Assembly: GCA_045863475.1 (NCBI GenBank) | Contig: BTUR01000001.1 | Span: forward strand, 184,978 to 248,977 | Reading direction: 5' to 3' | DNA length: 64,000 nt | Source: Candidatus Campbellbacteria bacterium | GTDB lineage: Bacteria; Patescibacteriota; Minisyncoccia; Phycocordibacterales; EsbW-18 | Shown: in pieces, positions 7,256 through 33,620 of the stretch | Layout: each line of letters starts with the position of its first letter | How positions within the stretch are numbered: position 1 is the first letter of the stretch | Program-made: the position numbers and the translations under genes | The notes under the pieces: model-generated | Told to the model about the DNA's origin: nothing | Database searches by the model: none | Seen by the model: only the letters and a program-made list of their open reading frames with translations

Positions 7256-8458
7256 TTACGCAACAATCTTTGTGACGACTCCTGCACCCACTGTCTTGCC
7301 ACCCTCGCGGATAGCGAAACGCTGCTGTGCTTCAAGCGCAATCGGCGCTGTGAGCTTCACTTTGAACGTTACGGTGTCACCCGGCATGACCATCTGAACG
7401 CCCTCAGCGAGTGTTACCTCTCCGGTGACGTCAGTCGTGCGGATGTAGAACTGCGGCTTGTAGCCGGAGACGAACGGCGTGTGGCGTCCGCCTTCATCCT
7501 TCGTGAGGATGAGGACCTCGGCCTCGAATTCCGTGTGCGGCGTAACCGAACCCGGAGCTGCGATGACCTGTCCGCGCGTCACGTCTTCTTTCTTGAGACC
7601 GCGGATGAGGATGCCTGCGTTGTCACCTGCCTGTCCTTCGTTGAGCGACTTGTTGAACATCTCAATGCCGGTAACGGTCGTCTTCTGCGTCGGCGCAAGT
7701 CCGACAACTTCAACGTCCTGACCAACTTTGATGATACCGCGCTCGATGCGGCCCGTTACCACGGTGCCACGTCCTTCAATTGAGAAGATGTCTTCAACCG
7801 GCATGAGGAACGGTTTGTCCGTTTCGCGAACCGGCTCGGTGATGTAGCTGTCGAGCGTGTTGACGAGCTCAAACACCTTCTGTGCCCACTCATCATCTGC
7901 TGACTTCGCTTCAAGCGCCTTAAGGCCTGAACCGCGGACGAACGGCGTCTCTTTGCCGTCGAATCCGTACTTCGTGAGCATTTCGCGAACCTCCTCTTCG
8001 ACGAGGTCGATGAGTTCGGCGTCGGCGACCATGTCACACTTGTTAAGGAAGACGATCATTTTCGGAACACCAACTTGCTTTGCAAGAAGGATGTGTTCAC
8101 GCGTCTGCGGCATCGCGCCGTCCGGAGCTGCAACCACGAGCACTGCGCCGTCCATTTGAGCGGCACCGGTGATCATGTTCTTGATGTAGTCGGCGTGACC
8201 AGGAGCGTCGATGTGCGCGTAGTGGCGGTTCGGCGTCCAGTACTCCGAGTGGTGGAGTGAAATAGTAATACCGCGCGCCTTCTCTTCGGGCGCTTTGTCG
8301 ATGTTGTCGATTGCCTCGACGCGGGCGCCGTATCCCTTGTCCTTGTTGAGGTCCAGGACGTGGAGGATAGCTGCGGTGAGAGTCGTCTTGCCGTGGTCAA
8401 CGTGGCCGATGGTTCCGACGTTGACGTGCGGCTTTGAACGATCAAATTCTGCTGCCAT
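7256..8458 (-). CDS. tuf: elongation factor Tu
   Basis: [22 protein letters not shown] and NKCD GTPase motifs; 400 aa. Confidence 0.95.
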
Positions 8459-11015: not shown

Positions 11016-11711
11016 CTAGTCGTGCTTCATCTCGTTGCCCAAGTGCTCGAGGTAGCGAGCAGCTGCACTTTGTCCTCCCAAACCAAATGAGAGACCGAAT
11101 GCAAGTGCAAGTGCGATGACAACACCTGTGAAGAGCGTCTGCAAGAATGCAACGCCGATACCGAGGTGTGAGAGCGCAACCAAGAGTGCGAAGACCAAGA
11201 TTGACCAGCGTGAGAGTGCACCGAGGAAACCTGCCATCTTGATGTGCGTTGCCTTCGCCGATGCGATGACGAGCTTGCGGACTGCCTCTGCAATCACCAC
11301 CGCAACCAGCATGATGAGCACTGCGACGATGACCTGCGGCAAGTAGCCCAAGACCACGTTGCTCAAGAAGTCGGTCACCTGTGTGAGGTTGACGATTTCA
11401 AGTGCGGCAATCAAGAAGACTACGATAATGAACCAGCGAACGAGCTCGCCGATGAATTTGCCTGAGTTAAGCGAGAAACCGGCGCGTGCGAGCGTCTGTT
11501 CCATGCCTGCGCCCCGAAGCGCCGAGTCGAGCTTCATCGTCTTGAGAACCTGGTCCACAGCACGTGCCAAAAGCGACGCGATGATCCAGCCGACGATGAA
11601 CACGATGAGGGCAACGATGAATTTCGGCAAAAACGCGATAACTCCCGCCCATACAGACGCGAGTGATCCCGCTACCGTCATACCCGTTGTTCCAAGAATT
11701 GTTCCTTGCAT
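11016..11711 (-). CDS. polytopic membrane protein with repeated 'conserved TM helix'-like segments (MscS-associated type)
   Basis: 231 aa with about 5 TM helices; repeated motifs KFIVALIVFIVGWIIASLLARAVD and KFIGELVRWFIIVVFLIAALEIV. Confidence 0.5.
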   Translation of the reverse strand: MQGTILGTTGMTVAGSLASVWAGVIAFLPKFIVALIVFIVGWIIASLLARAVDQVLKTMKLDSALRGAGMEQTLARAGFSLNSGKFIGELVRWFIIVVFLIAALEIVNLTQVTDFLSNVVLGYLPQVIVAVLIMLVAVVIAEAVRKLVIASAKATHIKMAGFLGALSRWSILVFALLVALSHLGIGVAFLQTLFTGVVIALALAFGLSFGLGGQSAAARYLEHLGNEMKHD

Positions 11712-29229: not shown

Positions 29230-29320
29230 CCCTTCTTTGTCCCACATACAAAAACGCTCTGCTCTTGGCAGAGTGTTTTTGTTTACCACTTTTTTTGTTA
29301 CTATAACGCGTGTTTCCGAT

Positions 29321-29391
29321 GCGGGATTAGTTTAGTGGCAAAATGACTGCCTTCCAAGCAGTAGACGCCGGTCCGATTCCGGCATCCCGCA
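29321..29391 (+). tRNA. tRNA-Gly (anticodon UCC)
   Basis: Acceptor GCGGGAT/ATCCCGC, anticodon stem-loop ACTGC-CTTCCAA-GCAGT, T-arm GCCGG-TCCGATT-CCGGC; CCA is not encoded. Confidence 0.75.
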
Positions 29392-29399
29392 CTAATTTG

Positions 29400-29468
29400 C
29401 CTTCCAAGTAGATGGAGATGTGTTTGAACACATCTCCATGGAGTCCGATTCTCCCTGCCCGCACAGAG
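29400..29468 (+). pseudogene. tRNA-derived fragment: anticodon-arm-like segment, a perfect 11-bp hairpin, then a T-arm/acceptor 3' strand identical to tRNA-Gly(GCC)
   Basis: TTGCCTTCCAAG, then ATGGAGATGTGtttgaaCACATCTCCAT, then GAGTCCGATTCTCCCTGCCCGCA, which is identical to 33314-33336. No 5' acceptor strand or D-arm is present. Confidence 0.45.
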
Positions 29469-29503
29469 TTTTTAAAACAAGGACATAGTGGTTTCATACA
29501 AAA

Positions 29504-29531
29504 ACCCCGCCACATACGTGGCGGGGTTTTT
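29504..29531 (+). terminator. rho-independent terminator
   Basis: CCCCGCCACATACGTGGCGGGG followed by TTTTT. Confidence 0.6.
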
Positions 29532-29822
29532 GCTTTTGAGGAGTAATCCTCATTCTGCGTGCTATGCAGCAGATTCTTCACCTTGGGGCTGTGCCTCTCC
29601 TTCGGCAGGTGCCTCCGGCATCGGCTGGCCTTCTGCAGGCTGCTGACCCTCCGTCTCCGGCTGGTCAACCTGCGGATTTACATTTTGATCGGTCATATGC
29701 AAGATGAGTTAGCTGACAATTAAATCCGCAGAATGCGGATTTGTAACTTCATACTACCAGAAACAAGCACTTCGGGCAACAAAAATCGCCCCGCGGCTAC
29801 GGGGCGATTTTGTTTGAGAGAT

Positions 29823-30251
29823 CTAACTAAACCACTGACGAAATCCTCGTGCACGAGGCAGTAAAAGAAGCAGTGCAAGCGGCGCGCCCCAGTTTGCCCA
29901 TCGTTCGACGAAGTCCCAGATTGACTCACCCATAATAGGACGCACGAGCGCGGTCCATAATCCCCAAAACGCCATCCAGAGTAGTGCGATGCGAATTGGT
30001 TTCACCAAAATAATGAGTGCAAGAATAATATCCATCAAACCAATGAGCGTCAGGAGCGTCATCGCCGTCCCCTGCTCCACCTTCATCAACTCCTGAATCC
30101 AAATAACCCACTGTTCCTTTCCGTTGTACGCAAGTATGCCGTGTCCGAAGAACTCTCCGGCGACCGCAATGCGCAACACCCATTCCATTGCTTTTGTATT
30201 CATACAAAAATAAATTAAAAAATGACTGATACCCTCAGTGTACGGCATCAA
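29823..30251 (-). CDS. hypothetical membrane protein
   Basis: 142 aa with 4 predicted TM helices. Confidence 0.4.
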   Translation of the reverse strand: MMPYTEGISHFLIYFCMNTKAMEWVLRIAVAGEFFGHGILAYNGKEQWVIWIQELMKVEQGTAMTLLTLIGLMDIILALIILVKPIRIALLWMAFWGLWTALVRPIMGESIWDFVERWANWGAPLALLLLLPRARGFRQWFS

Positions 30252-30291
30252 TCATTTTTTACGAGAGACCATGTGTATTGTCTCAACCTAG

Positions 30292-30362
30292 TCGGGGCGC
30301 CGAGAATCGGACTCGGTCTACTTGGTCCCAAACCAAGCGTACTACCGGTATACTACGCCCCG
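30292..30362 (-). tRNA. tRNA-Pro (anticodon UGG)
   Basis: Reverse complement gives CGGGGCG-TAGTATACCGGTAGTAC-GCTTGG-TTTGGGA-CCAAGT...CCGAG-TCCGATT-CTCGG-CGCCCCG-A; CCA is not encoded. Confidence 0.7.
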
Positions 30363-30742
30363 CTTTTGCCCTCCAACCCTCTTCTTATCTCATCGTGAAT
30401 AATCCTGTGGCAGTTAGCACACACAACTATACACTTTTTTATCTCTTTTATAAGTTTTTCGGACCCCACCTCTCGACGAAGTCCCCCTATTGTGAATGAT
30501 TTTGTCCCCTCAATTTTGTGATGAAAATCAAGCACTCTCGAATCGGCGTTGCCACAACGGTAGCATCCCCGGCTTTGTTTATATTCAGAGATCCACCGAT
30601 AATGCTTTTCTATAAGTGATTGTTTCGTCGCGCGATAACAATCGCGACACTTTCTCCGCCTAAATACCTTGCGTGGTGTTGTTAGTGCAACGCCAAAATA
30701 GTCGTCCGGGAATGTTTTGCCACAGTATTTGCATTTTTTCAT
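30353..30742 (-). CDS. HNH endonuclease, small standalone
   Basis: CxxC...CxxC, the LDFHHKI and CANCHRIIH motifs; its last 10 nt overlap the tRNA-Pro(UGG) 5' end. Confidence 0.7.
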   Translation of the reverse strand: MKKCKYCGKTFPDDYFGVALTTPRKVFRRRKCRDCYRATKQSLIEKHYRWISEYKQSRGCYRCGNADSRVLDFHHKIEGTKSFTIGGLRREVGSEKLIKEIKKCIVVCANCHRIIHDEIRRGLEGKSGA

Positions 30743-30802
30743 GCCCCAATTCTAGGGCGTGGATATAAATTTGGGATAAAATCACACATCCCAAAGAACA
30801 GG

Positions 30803-30873
30803 TCGGGCTGCCGGGAATTGAACCCGGTCTACATCCACCCCATGGATGCGTACTACCGGTATACTACAGCCCG
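30803..30873 (-). tRNA. tRNA-Pro (anticodon GGG)
   Basis: Reverse complement gives CGGGCTG-TAGTATACCGGTAGTAC-GCATCC-ATGGGGT-GGATGT-AGA-CCGGG-TTCAATT-CCCGG-CAGCCCG-A. Confidence 0.65.
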
Positions 30874-30981
30874 AGTGAGGAAAATCAGGTTTTATGTTCA
30901 CATGAAAACTGATTTTCCGAGCGAGGGACGTATCGAGATGCGCAGCAGCGAAGATACGCCCGACGAACTAATCTAGCATTT

Positions 30982-31740
30982 TTACATTTTTTTCTCCACC
31001 GAACTTTTCTTTAAACTCTTCCACACAATCTCAAAAATCTCGCGCATCGTCTTTGTAATCGCCGGGTTCTCAATCACTAATCCTTGTAAATTAAGCGGAT
31101 CAAAAAATCGCACAAACGTCGGACCAATCTCTACGGCAATGTCCGACGAGTATTCTCCTGCAGGTGCTTCAACAAATTCGCGTCCATACTCGATATCTTT
31201 TGCCCGAAATTCTTTCAAAGAAGGATCTTTCGGAGCGATACCTTGCATTCGCACCCCTCTGTTTTTCAACTCTTCGTTGTATTCCTCATATCCGCCGAAT
31301 ATTTTCATAACCTCAGGCGATGTTTTGGCATAGAAACCTTTTACAATTCCTCCCTCAAGAGAATCCAGACCGTACCGCAAAACTTCTTTCGCACCCTCAG
31401 CACCGTCAAAAAACAGCACTTGCGGTTTTTCGGTACCAACTTTCTCCAACGCCTTGATTTCCGGAAGCGCCCGCTCAACCTGTTCCAACCTTTCACGCGC
31501 CTTTTCAATCAGGTTTTCCGGCGATATCGCACGATAGAGCCTCTTTTTTGTACGTGGAACCAAAACCGCCGCTCCTTTGCGTACAAGCTCGTTAAGAATC
31601 ACATATGCCGTCGGACGTTTAAGCCCGCTGACAACCGCCACGGAGTACGCAGATGTCGTCCCGCGCTTCAAAAGAGCAAGGTATACCGCCGCCTCTTTCT
31701 CGGAAAACCCCAAGCGTTGTATAAGCTCCTGAAATTCCAT
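30982..31740 (-). CDS. TrmB-family winged-helix transcriptional regulator
   Basis: N-terminus LGFSEKEAAVYLALLKRGTTSAYSVAVVSGLKRPTAYVILNELVRKG is TrmB-like HTH, followed by a C-terminal effector-like domain. Confidence 0.55.
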   Translation of the reverse strand: MEFQELIQRLGFSEKEAAVYLALLKRGTTSAYSVAVVSGLKRPTAYVILNELVRKGAAVLVPRTKKRLYRAISPENLIEKARERLEQVERALPEIKALEKVGTEKPQVLFFDGAEGAKEVLRYGLDSLEGGIVKGFYAKTSPEVMKIFGGYEEYNEELKNRGVRMQGIAPKDPSLKEFRAKDIEYGREFVEAPAGEYSSDIAVEIGPTFVRFFDPLNLQGLVIENPAITKTMREIFEIVWKSLKKSSVEKKM

Positions 31741-31949
31741 ACATGGGCAGTATATACGCAACAGAAATAATAGTCAATATTTTTGACAACCTAAAGTGAT
31801 GGACGCATTAAAACCTTATTCTCAGGCGTTTTTTGACGTTTCACTGCACTATTTTTAGTCATAGTATTTGACATTTTATTCAAACCCATGTACACTGTGT
31901 CCAGATGATGAGCAATAAAGCTCATCGAGATCTTTGAGGAGACACTCTC

Positions 31950-32432
31950 ATGTATATCGAGGTCATCGGTGACACTCGGAACGGCGGAGATGTTTGGGCT
32001 GAAGTGGTAATCGGCGAGTGGAGCGGCAAGCCCCACCTCGATTCCGAACAAGCCACCATCTTCTACACCCCACTCTCAGAGCCGGTCCGGCAGGTTCTCG
32101 ATTCGCTTGGTCACAAGCACATCGAGGCCTTCGAGCATCTCTTCCTGCAACTCTTCCGCGCAGGCATGGATGCCGAGCATGATTGTCCTGAGATTATTCA
32201 AAATATTCGGGACATCTGGGAGCTCGACGCCGAGCAAGAGCGAGAGAGGCTCTGGCAAGAGGAGCACCGGGCCGGAATTGAGTACTGGGGCTCTAGGGGA
32301 CCAAACACCATCGAAAAGGACGAGCTGCTCGGAAAACAAATCTGGCAGGGACTCTCGATTGATGGTGGTGGTAACGAGGAGACGGCCCAGGAGTCCGCGG
32401 AGGACTCAGAAACAGAACCTCCGAAGCCGTGA
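31950..32432 (+). CDS. hypothetical acidic protein
   Basis: 160-aa ORF with high GC. Confidence 0.35.
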   Translation: MYIEVIGDTRNGGDVWAEVVIGEWSGKPHLDSEQATIFYTPLSEPVRQVLDSLGHKHIEAFEHLFLQLFRAGMDAEHDCPEIIQNIRDIWELDAEQERERLWQEEHRAGIEYWGSRGPNTIEKDELLGKQIWQGLSIDGGGNEETAQESAEDSETEPPKP

Positions 32433-32487
32433 GGCCGAAGACTCACGCACAGCCAACGGGAAACCGGGGCTGTTTTTTTATAAGTTT

Positions 32488-32892
32488 CTAAAGGACATTC
32501 TCAATGACACCTATTCTGGCAGTTTTGTCCTTTAGATTTAACTTTACCGTAACCACGTCCAGTTGGAATTTTGTTTCACGTGGAACATCCTTATCTACCA
32601 GGTAGGTTTGAATTACCCGTGAAAGCCGCTTGAGCTTTTCACGTGTAACATGTTCCTCTGGTCTTATTTGATTTGTTTCACGTGAAACATTACTTGTTTC
32701 TGTTTCCCATGAAACACACTTTACCTCAACAAAGTGAACTACGGATTCTTTGCAAGCAACAACATCCAACTCACCCCATTTTCTAAGATAATTTCTTTCA
32801 ATTATTGAAAAACCCTGTTTCATGAGAAACCGGACAGCCAGATCTTCCCCGATTCTTCCTATTTTTGATGTTTTTGTACCTAATTGTTTCAC
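32488..32892 (-). CDS. YraN/UPF0102-family predicted endonuclease, with a repeat-derived insertion
   Basis: GEDLAVRFLMKQGFSIIERNYLRKWGELDVVACKESVVHFVEVK is the YraN core. The ORF also contains multiple GTTTCACGTGAAAC-type palindromes that encode a low-complexity insert. Confidence 0.55.
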   Translation of the reverse strand: MKQLGTKTSKIGRIGEDLAVRFLMKQGFSIIERNYLRKWGELDVVACKESVVHFVEVKCVSWETETSNVSRETNQIRPEEHVTREKLKRLSRVIQTYLVDKDVPRETKFQLDVVTVKLNLKDKTARIGVIENVL

Positions 32893-33265
32893 GTGAAACT
32901 ATATTTTATAAAAAGCCTTATTTTATAACGTTTTTCATAAACTAAAGGACTTCAAGGACTGGTGTCTTTTACACATATCCCCGTTGTTATCCCCATTTTA
33001 GTGTTGAAAAATAAAGTTTTCTTAAAGACTTTCCTTGCTGTCTTTTTCATCTGATGTTCAAAATTGATTTCTTAGAGGCCTTGCCACTAAGTGCTTAGTG
33101 GCGAGACCTCTTGGGTACAACTTGGAAAAAAGTGTATATACGCTATACTCCAAAGCGTGCTGAAAGCACACTTGCGGGCATATGCGGTAGGTAGCATATG
33201 TCGCTGCGTTTGGAAAAGATGGGACTGAAGATCTCCAATCTTCATTCCGCCTTATTCCTCATTTG

Positions 33266-33336
33266 CGGGCATGGTTTAGTGGTAGAACACGTCCTTGCCA
33301 AGGACGAGACGGGAGTCCGATTCTCCCTGCCCGCAC
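33266..33336 (+). tRNA. tRNA-Gly (anticodon GCC)
   Basis: GCGGGCA...CGTCC-TTGCCAA-GGACG...GGGAG-TCCGATT-CTCCC-TGCCCGC-A, followed by CCA at 33337-33339. Confidence 0.8.
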
Positions 33337-33361
33337 CAAGTTGGTTACCCAAAATACTACC

Positions 33362-33386
33362 GTAGTGTGCTCCCGGAGGGATTCGG
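33362..33386. repeat. duplicated tRNA-Arg 3'-end fragment (direct repeat of 33481-33500)
   Basis: TGTGCTCCCGGAGGGATTCG occurs at both sites; the intervening 95 nt contains further T-arm-like debris (GGCTTTCGAATCCCTCC). Confidence 0.5.
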
Positions 33387-33482
33387 TCACAGATACTTTT
33401 CTGCTGAAAAGTCCTTCGACCCCGCCTCGCACCGTCGTGCTCCGGCTTTCGAATCCCTCCGAAAACATCGTATTACAATTTG

Positions 33483-33554
33483 TGCTCCCGGAGGGATTCG
33501 AACCCCCAACAACAGGTTCGAAGCCTGTCGTGATATCCATTTCACCACGGGAGC
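33483..33554 (-). tRNA. tRNA-Arg (anticodon UCG)
   Basis: Reverse complement gives GCTCCCG-TG-GTGAAATGGATATCAC-GACAGG-CTTCGAA-CCTGT-TGTTG-GGGGG-TTCGAAT-CCCTC-CGGGAGC-A. Confidence 0.7.
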
Positions 33555-33620
33555 AGATACGGTCGTATCATAATCTGATTCTTCGCTTTTTGCTACGGAT
33601 TTTCAATATACAATCAATGT

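Follow-up and report, generated by a model that had tools for sequence, protein, structure and literature searches.

What do duplicated tRNA 3′-ends tell us about the history of a tRNA gene cluster? The question is raised by a stretch of 64,000 nucleotides, called here the window, from contig BTUR01000001.1 of a Candidatus Campbellbacteria bacterium, a member of the Paceibacterota within the candidate phyla radiation (CPR), bacteria with tiny genomes. In this window lies a patch of five tRNA genes, and the 3′-ends of two of them, tRNA-Gly(GCC) and tRNA-Arg(UCG), are each found a second time. A sequence-only reading had taken these repeats as scars of integrase-mediated insertion, and the 29.47-33.26 kb segment between the Gly repeats as a decayed genomic island. 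One part of that explanation holds: the repeats do mark insertion or replacement at tRNA genes, on a scale of 100-200 nucleotides, but they are not the ends of an island. The two pairs are best read (with a probability of about 0.6) as separate local events at two tRNA genes, namely a miniature insertion element behind tRNA-Arg and the remnant of an older gene behind tRNA-Gly(UCC). The former is a member of a large family of structured elements, apparently undescribed so far, that sit at the 3′-ends of tRNA and transfer-messenger RNA (tmRNA) genes in the Paceibacterota.

Both repeats are real. The 24-mer GGAGTCCGATTCTCCCTGCCCGCA occurs exactly twice in the window, at 29440-29463 and 33312-33335, with an identity that extends to 25 nucleotides, and TGTGCTCCCGGAGGGATTCG is likewise present exactly twice, at 33366-33385 and 33481-33500, the copies being 95 nucleotides apart as first described. 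Shuffled sequences never gave a match, neither for the Gly repeat (0/100) nor for the Arg repeat. The coordinates first given were off by one to four bases overall, by one for the Gly copies, while the distal Arg copy, placed at 33362-33386, correctly spans 33366-33385. What had been described as T-arm debris between the Arg copies exists as well, and turns out to be an inverted copy of the same tRNA end. Calling of tRNAs in the window, by ARAGORN and Rfam, was in agreement, and on the strand of tRNA-Arg the locus is laid out as follows, B* and B being the inverted and the direct copy:

33483-33554, minus strand: tRNA-Arg(UCG), called by ARAGORN and Rfam; intact, the anchor of the 115-nucleotide element
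33468-33482, minus strand: trailer between tRNA-Arg and B*, read from the sequence
33450-33467, minus strand: B*, inverted copy of the tRNA-Arg 3′-end (15/18 bases), 5′ strand of the closing helix
33386-33449, minus strand: core, made of AAAG, helix P1 (GCC...GGC, with a tandem G.A internal loop), GG, and helix P2 (GGUCGAAGGAC...GUAUCUGUGAC)
33366-33385, minus strand: B, direct 20-nucleotide copy of the tRNA-Arg 3′-end, 3′ strand of the closing helix

Read in the orientation of its tRNA, this non-coding element of 115 nucleotides starts 15 nucleotides past tRNA-Arg on the same strand, in the order trailer, B*, core, B. B runs from T-loop residue C56 to two bases beyond the discriminator of tRNA-Arg, and B* is made up of the equivalents of the acceptor and T-stem 5′ strands plus AUUCG. 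On the tRNA-sense strand the two pair fully if U.G pairs are counted. The fold of the window element has a z-score of -5.8, and its core scores 84.8 bits with the covariance model of the family (model R1), whose seed includes this very sequence; a profile built without it still finds the window copy at 33372-33464 with E = 4e-12. According to the covariance model, this is the sole family copy in the 64 kb. It displays the features by which the family is recognised, being adjacent to and co-oriented with a tRNA, carrying the core and its three-way junction, and having both end copies start from C56. By analogy with the empty and filled sites of two relatives described below, B would be the displaced native 3′-end of tRNA-Arg.

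How widespread is this design? Two samples were used. The first consists of 80 loci from metagenome-assembled genomes of Parcubacteria/Paceibacterota, retrieved with the RNase Y gene that lies upstream in the window; the closest relative among them, L006, has 94% amino-acid and about 80% nucleotide identity. The second comprises at least 120 metagenome loci from a pattern scan of contigs. Downstream of tRNA-Gly(UCC) genes the same order recurs: a tRNA, a trailer that often holds a terminator-like hairpin, B*, the core, and B starting at C56 of the T-loop. A first nhmmer profile, built from eight elements seen downstream of tRNA-Gly(UCC) genes, gave 21 matches when applied to the window and the 80 genome loci. 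Twenty of these lie directly 3′ of a tRNA and are co-oriented with it, the sole exception being a weak partial match on the opposite strand at the end of locus L004 (E = 0.007). The metagenome loci gave at least 146 profile matches, of which 110 stand behind tRNAs of 26 anticodon species; among the same 146 matches listed, 7 are at a contig edge and 29 have no detected upstream tRNA. Of the latter 29, at least 8 stand behind a tmRNA gene, and several others behind a tmRNA-like 3′-end, as judged by eye. In all, the family comprises more than 160 copies, and about 77% have a detected tRNA immediately upstream in the same orientation. No description of these elements was found in the literature searched, which is not proof of novelty; the closest publication deals with group I introns found in tRNAs of Patescibacteria at position 35/36, which are unrelated. 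A permissive search of the window region and L006 with Rfam 15, including its hammerhead, twister, pistol, hatchet, YrlA, and tmRNA families, returned only tRNAs.

At least two further core families have the same architecture of inverted and direct tRNA 3′-end copies, and both are missed by the first model. The second core type is found in L056, L168, L175, and L050, the third in L060, L049, L030, and L061. One of the further cores reads AATCGAAGCC...GGTACTGA...hairpin...TTCGATT, and the other is rich in GGGGTCGGG...GGAAAACCGTGGGTTTCC. In L226, 3.7 kb of sequence lies between two identical elements (7376-7507 and 11076-11192), each of which has a tRNA-His 3′-end on its flank. This cargo appears by eye to encode two pyrophosphatases, a 2′-5′ RNA-ligase-like protein, one membrane protein, and one DUF305-like protein. 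Its open reading frames (ORFs), judged by eye without a library scan, include no evident integrase.

The elements are held together by their structure. The closing helix formed by B* and B corresponds to the acceptor stem of the neighbouring tRNA stacked on its T stem, extended by AAUCG:CGAUU, and it encloses a three-way junction with helices P1 and P2; the folds have z-scores from -5.8 to -7.8. In a first alignment of 40 sequences (A1), compensatory changes are seen in 20/24 pairs, and the pair between AAAG-N-CGG and GAG-N′-CGG is found in all four Watson-Crick combinations. A second set of 23 covariance-model matches in the genome loci, 20/23 of them outside the model seed, gave the same picture: 94.5% of cells are paired, versus 31-43% when the partners are slid, and 21/24 pairs show compensatory changes, values that none of 500 shuffles reached.

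This structure belongs to one strand. Of 138 elements, 135 are more stable as the tRNA-sense strand, the mean difference being 9.5 kcal/mol, and G.U pairs number 421 in sense versus 166 in antisense. The bias survives correction by dinucleotide shuffling (z-scores of -4.8 in sense and -3.7 in antisense). Because both the fold and the excess of G.U pairs are strand-specific, the data suggest that the core is selected as a single strand, be it RNA or single-stranded DNA. An excess of G.U over A.C pairs is seen in P1 and P2 and is absent from the closing helix, which behaves more like a DNA palindrome.

Some details of the fold deserve mention on their own account. Next to a 3-bp junction helix, P1 has a conserved internal loop in which tandem G.A/A.G pairs are accompanied by a bulge of one base (A1 columns 25-34 and 67-74). 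It resembles a k-turn or k-junction, but a canonical k-turn was rejected by eye, since next to the tandem G.A pairs the bulge has only one nucleotide. A hammerhead was also rejected by eye: CUGACCGA is there with an extra base, and the UH cleavage site is absent. Nor is the core an invertible switch, being co-oriented with its tRNA at every tRNA-adjacent site save one weak partial match. In many variants a further hairpin, whose AA-CUGC-UU tip is conserved, lies between the acceptor-like and the T-stem-like strands.

Do these sequences insert? The clearest case is offered by tRNA-Gly(GCC) in two relatives. In L001 the gene is followed by CTTGTTAT... and then by tRNA-Arg, while in L006 it is followed by a 168-nucleotide insert ending in CGATTCTCCCTGCCCGCA and then by the same CTTGTTAT... 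Compared with each other, the empty and the filled site reveal a clean insertion with a duplication of 18 nucleotides, from C56 to the discriminator. At this same gene an encoded CCA is present in the window (33336-33338) and in L006 (15097-15099, the first three bases of the insert), but not in the empty site of L001 (10080-10082). The window keeps the first bases of the L006 insert (CCAAG.TT), and the rest of that element is missing.

A direct copy of the 3′-end lies within 450 nucleotides downstream of 84 of 343 tRNAs, and upstream of only 2. The direct repeat measures from 11 to 75 nucleotides across loci, and the duplication may reach into the trailer, as in L034 (44 nucleotides) and L040 (75 nucleotides), or take in the whole unit (L055). 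Different core families are stacked in tandem behind a single tmRNA or a single tRNA-His. The distal B is a perfect copy in 29/78 cases, and among pairs that differ, the intact tRNA is better matched by B* in 24 cases and by the distal B in 3. In L060 the 5′ strands of the tRNA pair better with the distal than with the proximal copy.

A sequence of events can be proposed from these observations. The element would enter the tRNA gene at the T-loop and would bring with it a replacement 3′-end as well as the complement of that end, and the native 3′-end would stay as the distal direct repeat and then decay. The incoming unit would consist of the 3′-end, the trailer, B*, and the core, a model suggested because it is the distal copy that has decayed and B* that fits the intact tRNA (24 vs 3). 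A folded single-stranded circle integrating at C56 would give the order tRNA, trailer, B*, core, B, by analogy with the attC and CTX-phi sites discussed below, and in that single-stranded form the closing helix would mimic the target. In its complete form the proposal is one of undescribed, protein-less mobile elements of 100-250 nucleotides, abundant in Paceibacterota, that would go into T-loop position 56 of tRNA and tmRNA genes by way of a folded single strand (DNA or RNA), with a closing helix that mimics the acceptor/T target, would regenerate the tRNA while leaving the old 3′-end behind, and would help to drive the flipping and replacement of tRNA genes. It is offered tentatively, as possible but doubtful.

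The Gly repeat has another origin. Its upstream copy lies in a fragment (29400-29464) just behind tRNA-Gly(UCC), and the features concerned are these:

29321-29391/2, plus strand: tRNA-Gly(UCC), called by ARAGORN and Rfam; intact, with a C55 T-loop
29392-29411, plus strand: 8-nucleotide spacer and anticodon-arm remnant (overlapping TTTGCCTTCCAAGTAGA), read from the sequence; aligns with CTGCCTTCCGAGCAG in L006
29412-29439, plus strand: perfect 11-bp hairpin with loop TTTGAA at the position of the variable region, from sequence and folding
29440-29464, plus strand: T-arm (4/5 stem pairs), acceptor 3′ strand, and discriminator; 25 nucleotides identical to the 3′-end of tRNA-Gly(GCC), including the rare C55
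29502-29535, plus strand: GC-rich hairpin between A and T runs, from sequence only and not listed by a simple scan; probable terminator of the unit made of tRNA-Gly(UCC) plus fragment
33265-33338, plus strand: tRNA-Gly(GCC), called by ARAGORN and Rfam; intact, with encoded CCA and the second copy of the 25-mer at 33312-33336

The sequence-only reading was accurate here: the perfect 11-bp hairpin is present (29412-22 with 29429-39), the anticodon-arm-like segment contains GCCTTCCAAG, which tRNA-Gly(UCC) has unchanged in its anticodon loop region, and the fragment is an incomplete tRNA, with ARAGORN and Rfam calling nothing at 29393-29470. It lacks the acceptor 5′ strand and the D arm, as a pseudogene or truncated copy would, and folds with a z-score of -3.9. 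The same arrangement of tRNA-Gly(UCC) and fragment is found in L010 and also in L006, where tRNA, fragment, and about 20 further bases form one inverted block (window 29320-29483, L006 13255-13095). The hairpin stem is kept in L006 through a double change from G-C to A-T and one U.G pair; in L010 the anticodon-arm remnant is weaker, and the lower stem is almost completely re-written, so that the hairpin there resembles an intrinsic terminator. Six further loci were reached via four close HU homologues, and the two of them with tRNA-Gly(UCC) both lack the fragment. The fragment is a 5′-truncated tandem copy of tRNA-Gly(UCC) with a conserved variable-region hairpin, common to L006 and L010.

Why then does it match another gene? 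In relatives the 3′-end of tRNA-Gly(UCC), GGGAGTTCGATTCTCCCTGCCCGCA, equals the 3′ half of tRNA-Gly(GCC) except for one T-loop base, and since the Gly isoacceptors share their 3′ half in this way, the match needs no island. The fragment may be what is left of an earlier tRNA-Gly(UCC) gene, retaining the ancestral type of 3′-end. Its perfect 25-nucleotide identity to tRNA-Gly(GCC), including the rare C55, points to subsequent homogenisation through gene conversion. The adjoining intact tRNA-Gly(UCC) would have been replaced later by a foreign (xenologous) allele, because it has only 72% identity to its L006 orthologue, compared with 100% for tRNA-Gly(GCC), tRNA-Arg, and tRNA-Pro(GGG) and 93% for tRNA-Pro(UGG), and its best match (90%, in L012 and L014) comes from genomes much more distant than L006. 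Replacement of a tRNA gene leaving a 3′ remnant appears to be recurrent in the clade, as the downstream partial copies in L007, L010, and L209 are likewise a different tRNA allele from the intact gene. The fallback already considered in the sequence-only reading, a product of tRNA-gene recombination, comes close for this fragment.

Between the two Gly genes lie the remaining features of the patch:

30291-30362, minus strand: tRNA-Pro(UGG), called by ARAGORN and Rfam
30353-30742, minus strand: HNH-like ORF of 129 amino acids, Cys-rich; its HNH match of 18 bits is below the threshold of 21.4
30801-30873, minus strand: tRNA-Pro(GGG), called by ARAGORN and Rfam
30982-31761, minus strand: TrmB-family regulator, absent from L006
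31950-32432, plus strand: ORF160, an unannotated acidic ORF of 160 amino acids, absent from L006
32488-32892, minus strand: YraN/UPF0102, found in the same tRNA patch in L006, L001, L002, L004, and L005 too

It is on this interval that the idea of a decayed integrase island at a tRNA-Gly gene, with the 25-nucleotide repeats as attL and attR, has to be judged. The direct repeat is exact and real, the HNH-like ORF, the TrmB gene, and ORF160 lie inside and are absent from L006, and the GC content falls to about 0.45 over 30.0-31.4 kb, versus about 0.52 in the flanks (it is about 0.45-0.47 over the TrmB/ORF160 region). After integration an att scar is expected downstream of the intact tRNA, the island having a partial 3′ copy at its far end. 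Here the model fails on polarity, since the intact tRNA-Gly(GCC) has the fragment 3.8 kb upstream of it, on the same strand; in L006 and L010, too, the fragment stands beside tRNA-Gly(UCC). The backbone is conserved besides. The set of five tRNAs downstream of the RNase Y and HU genes is also present in L006, L001, L002, and L005, and the check for a contiguous tRNA-Gly/tRNA-Arg arrangement in relatives, suggested with the island, went against it: BLAST shows the full order tRNA-Gly(UCC), membrane protein, two tRNA-Pro, YraN, tRNA-Gly(GCC), tRNA-Arg, CCA enzyme in L006, and the same backbone order in L001 as far as tRNA-Arg, where the contig ends, and in L005, which has both tRNA-Pro and YraN but no match for the membrane protein. 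The block of TrmB and ORF160 and the HNH-like ORF, which are the only indels, are internal to the interval, with edges that do not fall at the tRNA-end repeats. A Pfam scan of the five ORFs between the Gly repeats gave the weak HNH match, TrmB, UPF0102, and two ORFs without a match; none matched an integrase family, as had already been remarked from the sequence. A search for larger islands between tRNA 3′ copies, up to 10 kb, returned only cross-matches of the two Gly genes. An island between the Gly repeats is very improbable indeed.

Could the elements instead belong to the host, as non-coding RNA genes or tRNA 3′-trailer modules rather than mobile DNA? The RNA would then be processed as a tRNA minihelix is, its closing helix making it a substrate for trimming by RNase P, RNase Z, and the CCA-adding enzyme, and the core would have some function of its own. 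The strand-specific fold with its excess of G.U pairs, the very strong covariation and invariant junction sequences, and a tandem G.A internal loop typical of RNA are all in keeping with this, as are the U.G pairs that hold the acceptor part of the closing helix in the window copy. A host RNA fits less well with a distal closing-helix strand that is so often decayed or lost, with the equal G.U and A.C departures of the closing helix (as for a DNA palindrome), or with the terminator-like hairpin frequent between tRNA and element. Tandem stacks exist, unrelated core families share the same repeat architecture, and the same tRNA may lack the element in close relatives, as is the case for tRNA-Arg in L001 and L002. 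A host RNA is for these reasons rather unlikely. Passive replication errors, that is, template switching at terminator hairpins together with slippage, would ask for neither mobility nor function, and could account for the near-perfect palindromes that run from the tRNA 3′-end into B* and are centred on terminator-like hairpins (L232, L140, L173, and L231) and for a direct repeat of variable length. They cannot yield one covarying core behind 26 anticodon species and tmRNA in many genomes, nor a fixed C56 junction, and are improbable.

Separate local events, an insertion behind tRNA-Arg and a remnant behind tRNA-Gly(UCC), are the preferred reading, against which several points have to be set. 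The element is orthologous in the window and L006, so copies persist for long, which would also fit a host function, and strong covariation with conserved junction bases is expected of a functional RNA too. A terminator-like hairpin precedes many copies and complicates co-transcription with the tRNA. A weak core copy (L010, 9605-9727, 33.6 bits) follows clpP rather than a tRNA; no upstream RNA gene was detected, its closing helix is the non-tRNA pair TCAATAA/TTATTGA, and Rfam finds nothing in L010 8800-9800 at E <= 0.01. Neither a recombinase or transposase nor a free form of the element turned up. Viral contigs, phages, and plasmids are without any element match: a core pattern with 15 specified bases gave 43 matches in viral contigs, none of them a true element by profile, and phages and plasmids returned nothing to a BLAST query with a well-formed element. 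As an intermediate, a double-stranded circle of 100-250 bp is implausible, and the mechanism of mobility is a conjecture for that reason. At the Gly locus, finally, xenologous replacement and gene conversion are suggested by sequence identities, and the fragment has been retained across deep divergence, which is odd for pure debris.

The gene content of the patch has its own history. Compared with L006, the window has three additional genes: the weakly HNH-like ORF, the TrmB-family gene, and ORF160. The HNH-like ORF separates tRNA-Pro(GGG) and tRNA-Pro(UGG), which are 13 nucleotides apart in L006, and looks like a free-standing insertion of the homing-endonuclease type. In L006, YraN comes directly after tRNA-Pro, without TrmB and ORF160 (window about 30880-32480). 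UPF0102 presumably has the nuclease fold predicted for it.

Compared with L006, the window has individual tRNA units turned around at their own position, with no change in the direction of the protein genes on either side; this is so for tRNA-Gly(UCC) plus fragment (29320-29483), the Pro pair (30291-30882), and tRNA-Arg plus element (33379-33554). The orientation of tRNA units also varies among L001, L002, and L005. In the window the Arg unit has on its flanks an imperfect inverted repeat of about 12 bp, ATAC(T/G)ACCGTA, spotted by eye. A further peculiarity is the T-loop UCCGAUU, with C for the near-universal U55. The TCCGATT loop reported earlier for both Gly tRNAs is confirmed, and tRNA-Pro(UGG) has the same one, making three of the five window tRNAs (29372-29378, 30303-30309 on the minus strand, and 33316-33322), in addition to the Gly fragment (29444-29450). 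Among 311 distinct tRNAs from all fetched loci, C55 is found in 10, exclusively tRNA-Gly(GCC), tRNA-Gly(UCC), and tRNA-Pro(UGG), and in L006 it occurs in tRNA-Gly(GCC) only.

How do the elements compare with known systems? At tRNA and tmRNA genes occupied by integrase islands or prophages, attL is the restored tRNA and attR a 3′ fragment, with the crossover in the T-loop or the anticodon loop; a 2002 study by Williams in NAR is said to have described which sublocations are preferred. Like such islands, the elements target tRNA and tmRNA genes, leave an intact gene upstream and a direct 3′ copy downstream (84 vs 2), have a repeat that starts inside the T-loop, and build up in tandem copies of which the distal one decays. 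Unlike them, they are non-coding, measure 100-250 nucleotides, have no integrase nearby, and carry an inverted copy of the target together with a conserved core that covaries strand-specifically; large islands between these repeats were not seen in the search to 10 kb. The integron attC site and the CTX-phi attP(+) hairpin, used by XerCD, are folded single-strand recombination sites. The elements are like these in that the palindrome is imperfect and that a one-strand structure rather than a sequence is conserved, the same being expected of an RNA; their targets, unlike those of attC and CTX-phi, are T-loops, and the likeness may serve as a lead. In E. coli, tyrT is followed by tandem 178-bp repeats, each with the last 19 or so nucleotides of tRNA-Tyr. 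Both cases have in common that the 3′-end of the tRNA is directly repeated close behind its gene, but tyrT is a single locus in one lineage and is not known to have an inverted copy or a conserved structured core shared among many tRNA species.

Small, non-coding, structured, multi-copy, and intergenic, the elements also bring to mind miniature transposable elements with inverted repeats (MITEs), repetitive extragenic palindromic (REP) sequences and bacterial interspersed mosaic elements (BIMEs), and Rickettsia palindromic elements (RPEs). Unlike all these, their inverted repeats are derived from the target and differ from tRNA to tRNA, their duplication is long and variable in length yet always begins at C56, and they are almost restricted to the 3′-ends of tRNA and tmRNA genes. 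A classical MITE of a DDE transposase was considered and rejected, as the inverted repeats match the host tRNA and the duplication is of 11-75 nucleotides. In the tRNA-like domain of tmRNA, YrlA, and mascRNA a further likeness may be seen, for the closing helix of the elements is an acceptor stem on a T stem that ends in the discriminator, and some variants add one extra arm to this acceptor/T minihelix. Contrary to those RNAs, however, the elements have no T-loop, D arm, or anticodon arm and no Rfam match, and their helix copies whichever tRNA is upstream.

For these genomes, the practical meaning is that repeats of tRNA 3′-ends should not be taken as island boundaries, and that the frequent flipping and replacement of tRNA genes affects any annotation based on synteny. 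If the proposal made here is true, CPR genomes of less than 1 Mb would be host to a very abundant family of non-coding insertions, tiny and structured, whose target is the loop that is best conserved in tRNA and tmRNA genes; this would amount to a new way of parasitising, or of servicing, tRNA genes. It would also provide a new family of RNA or single-stranded DNA structures, with excellent covariation, for structural and biochemical study. Should the elements instead prove to be RNAs of the host, trimmed in the manner of tRNAs, they would form a new class of small RNAs that mimic tRNA ends.

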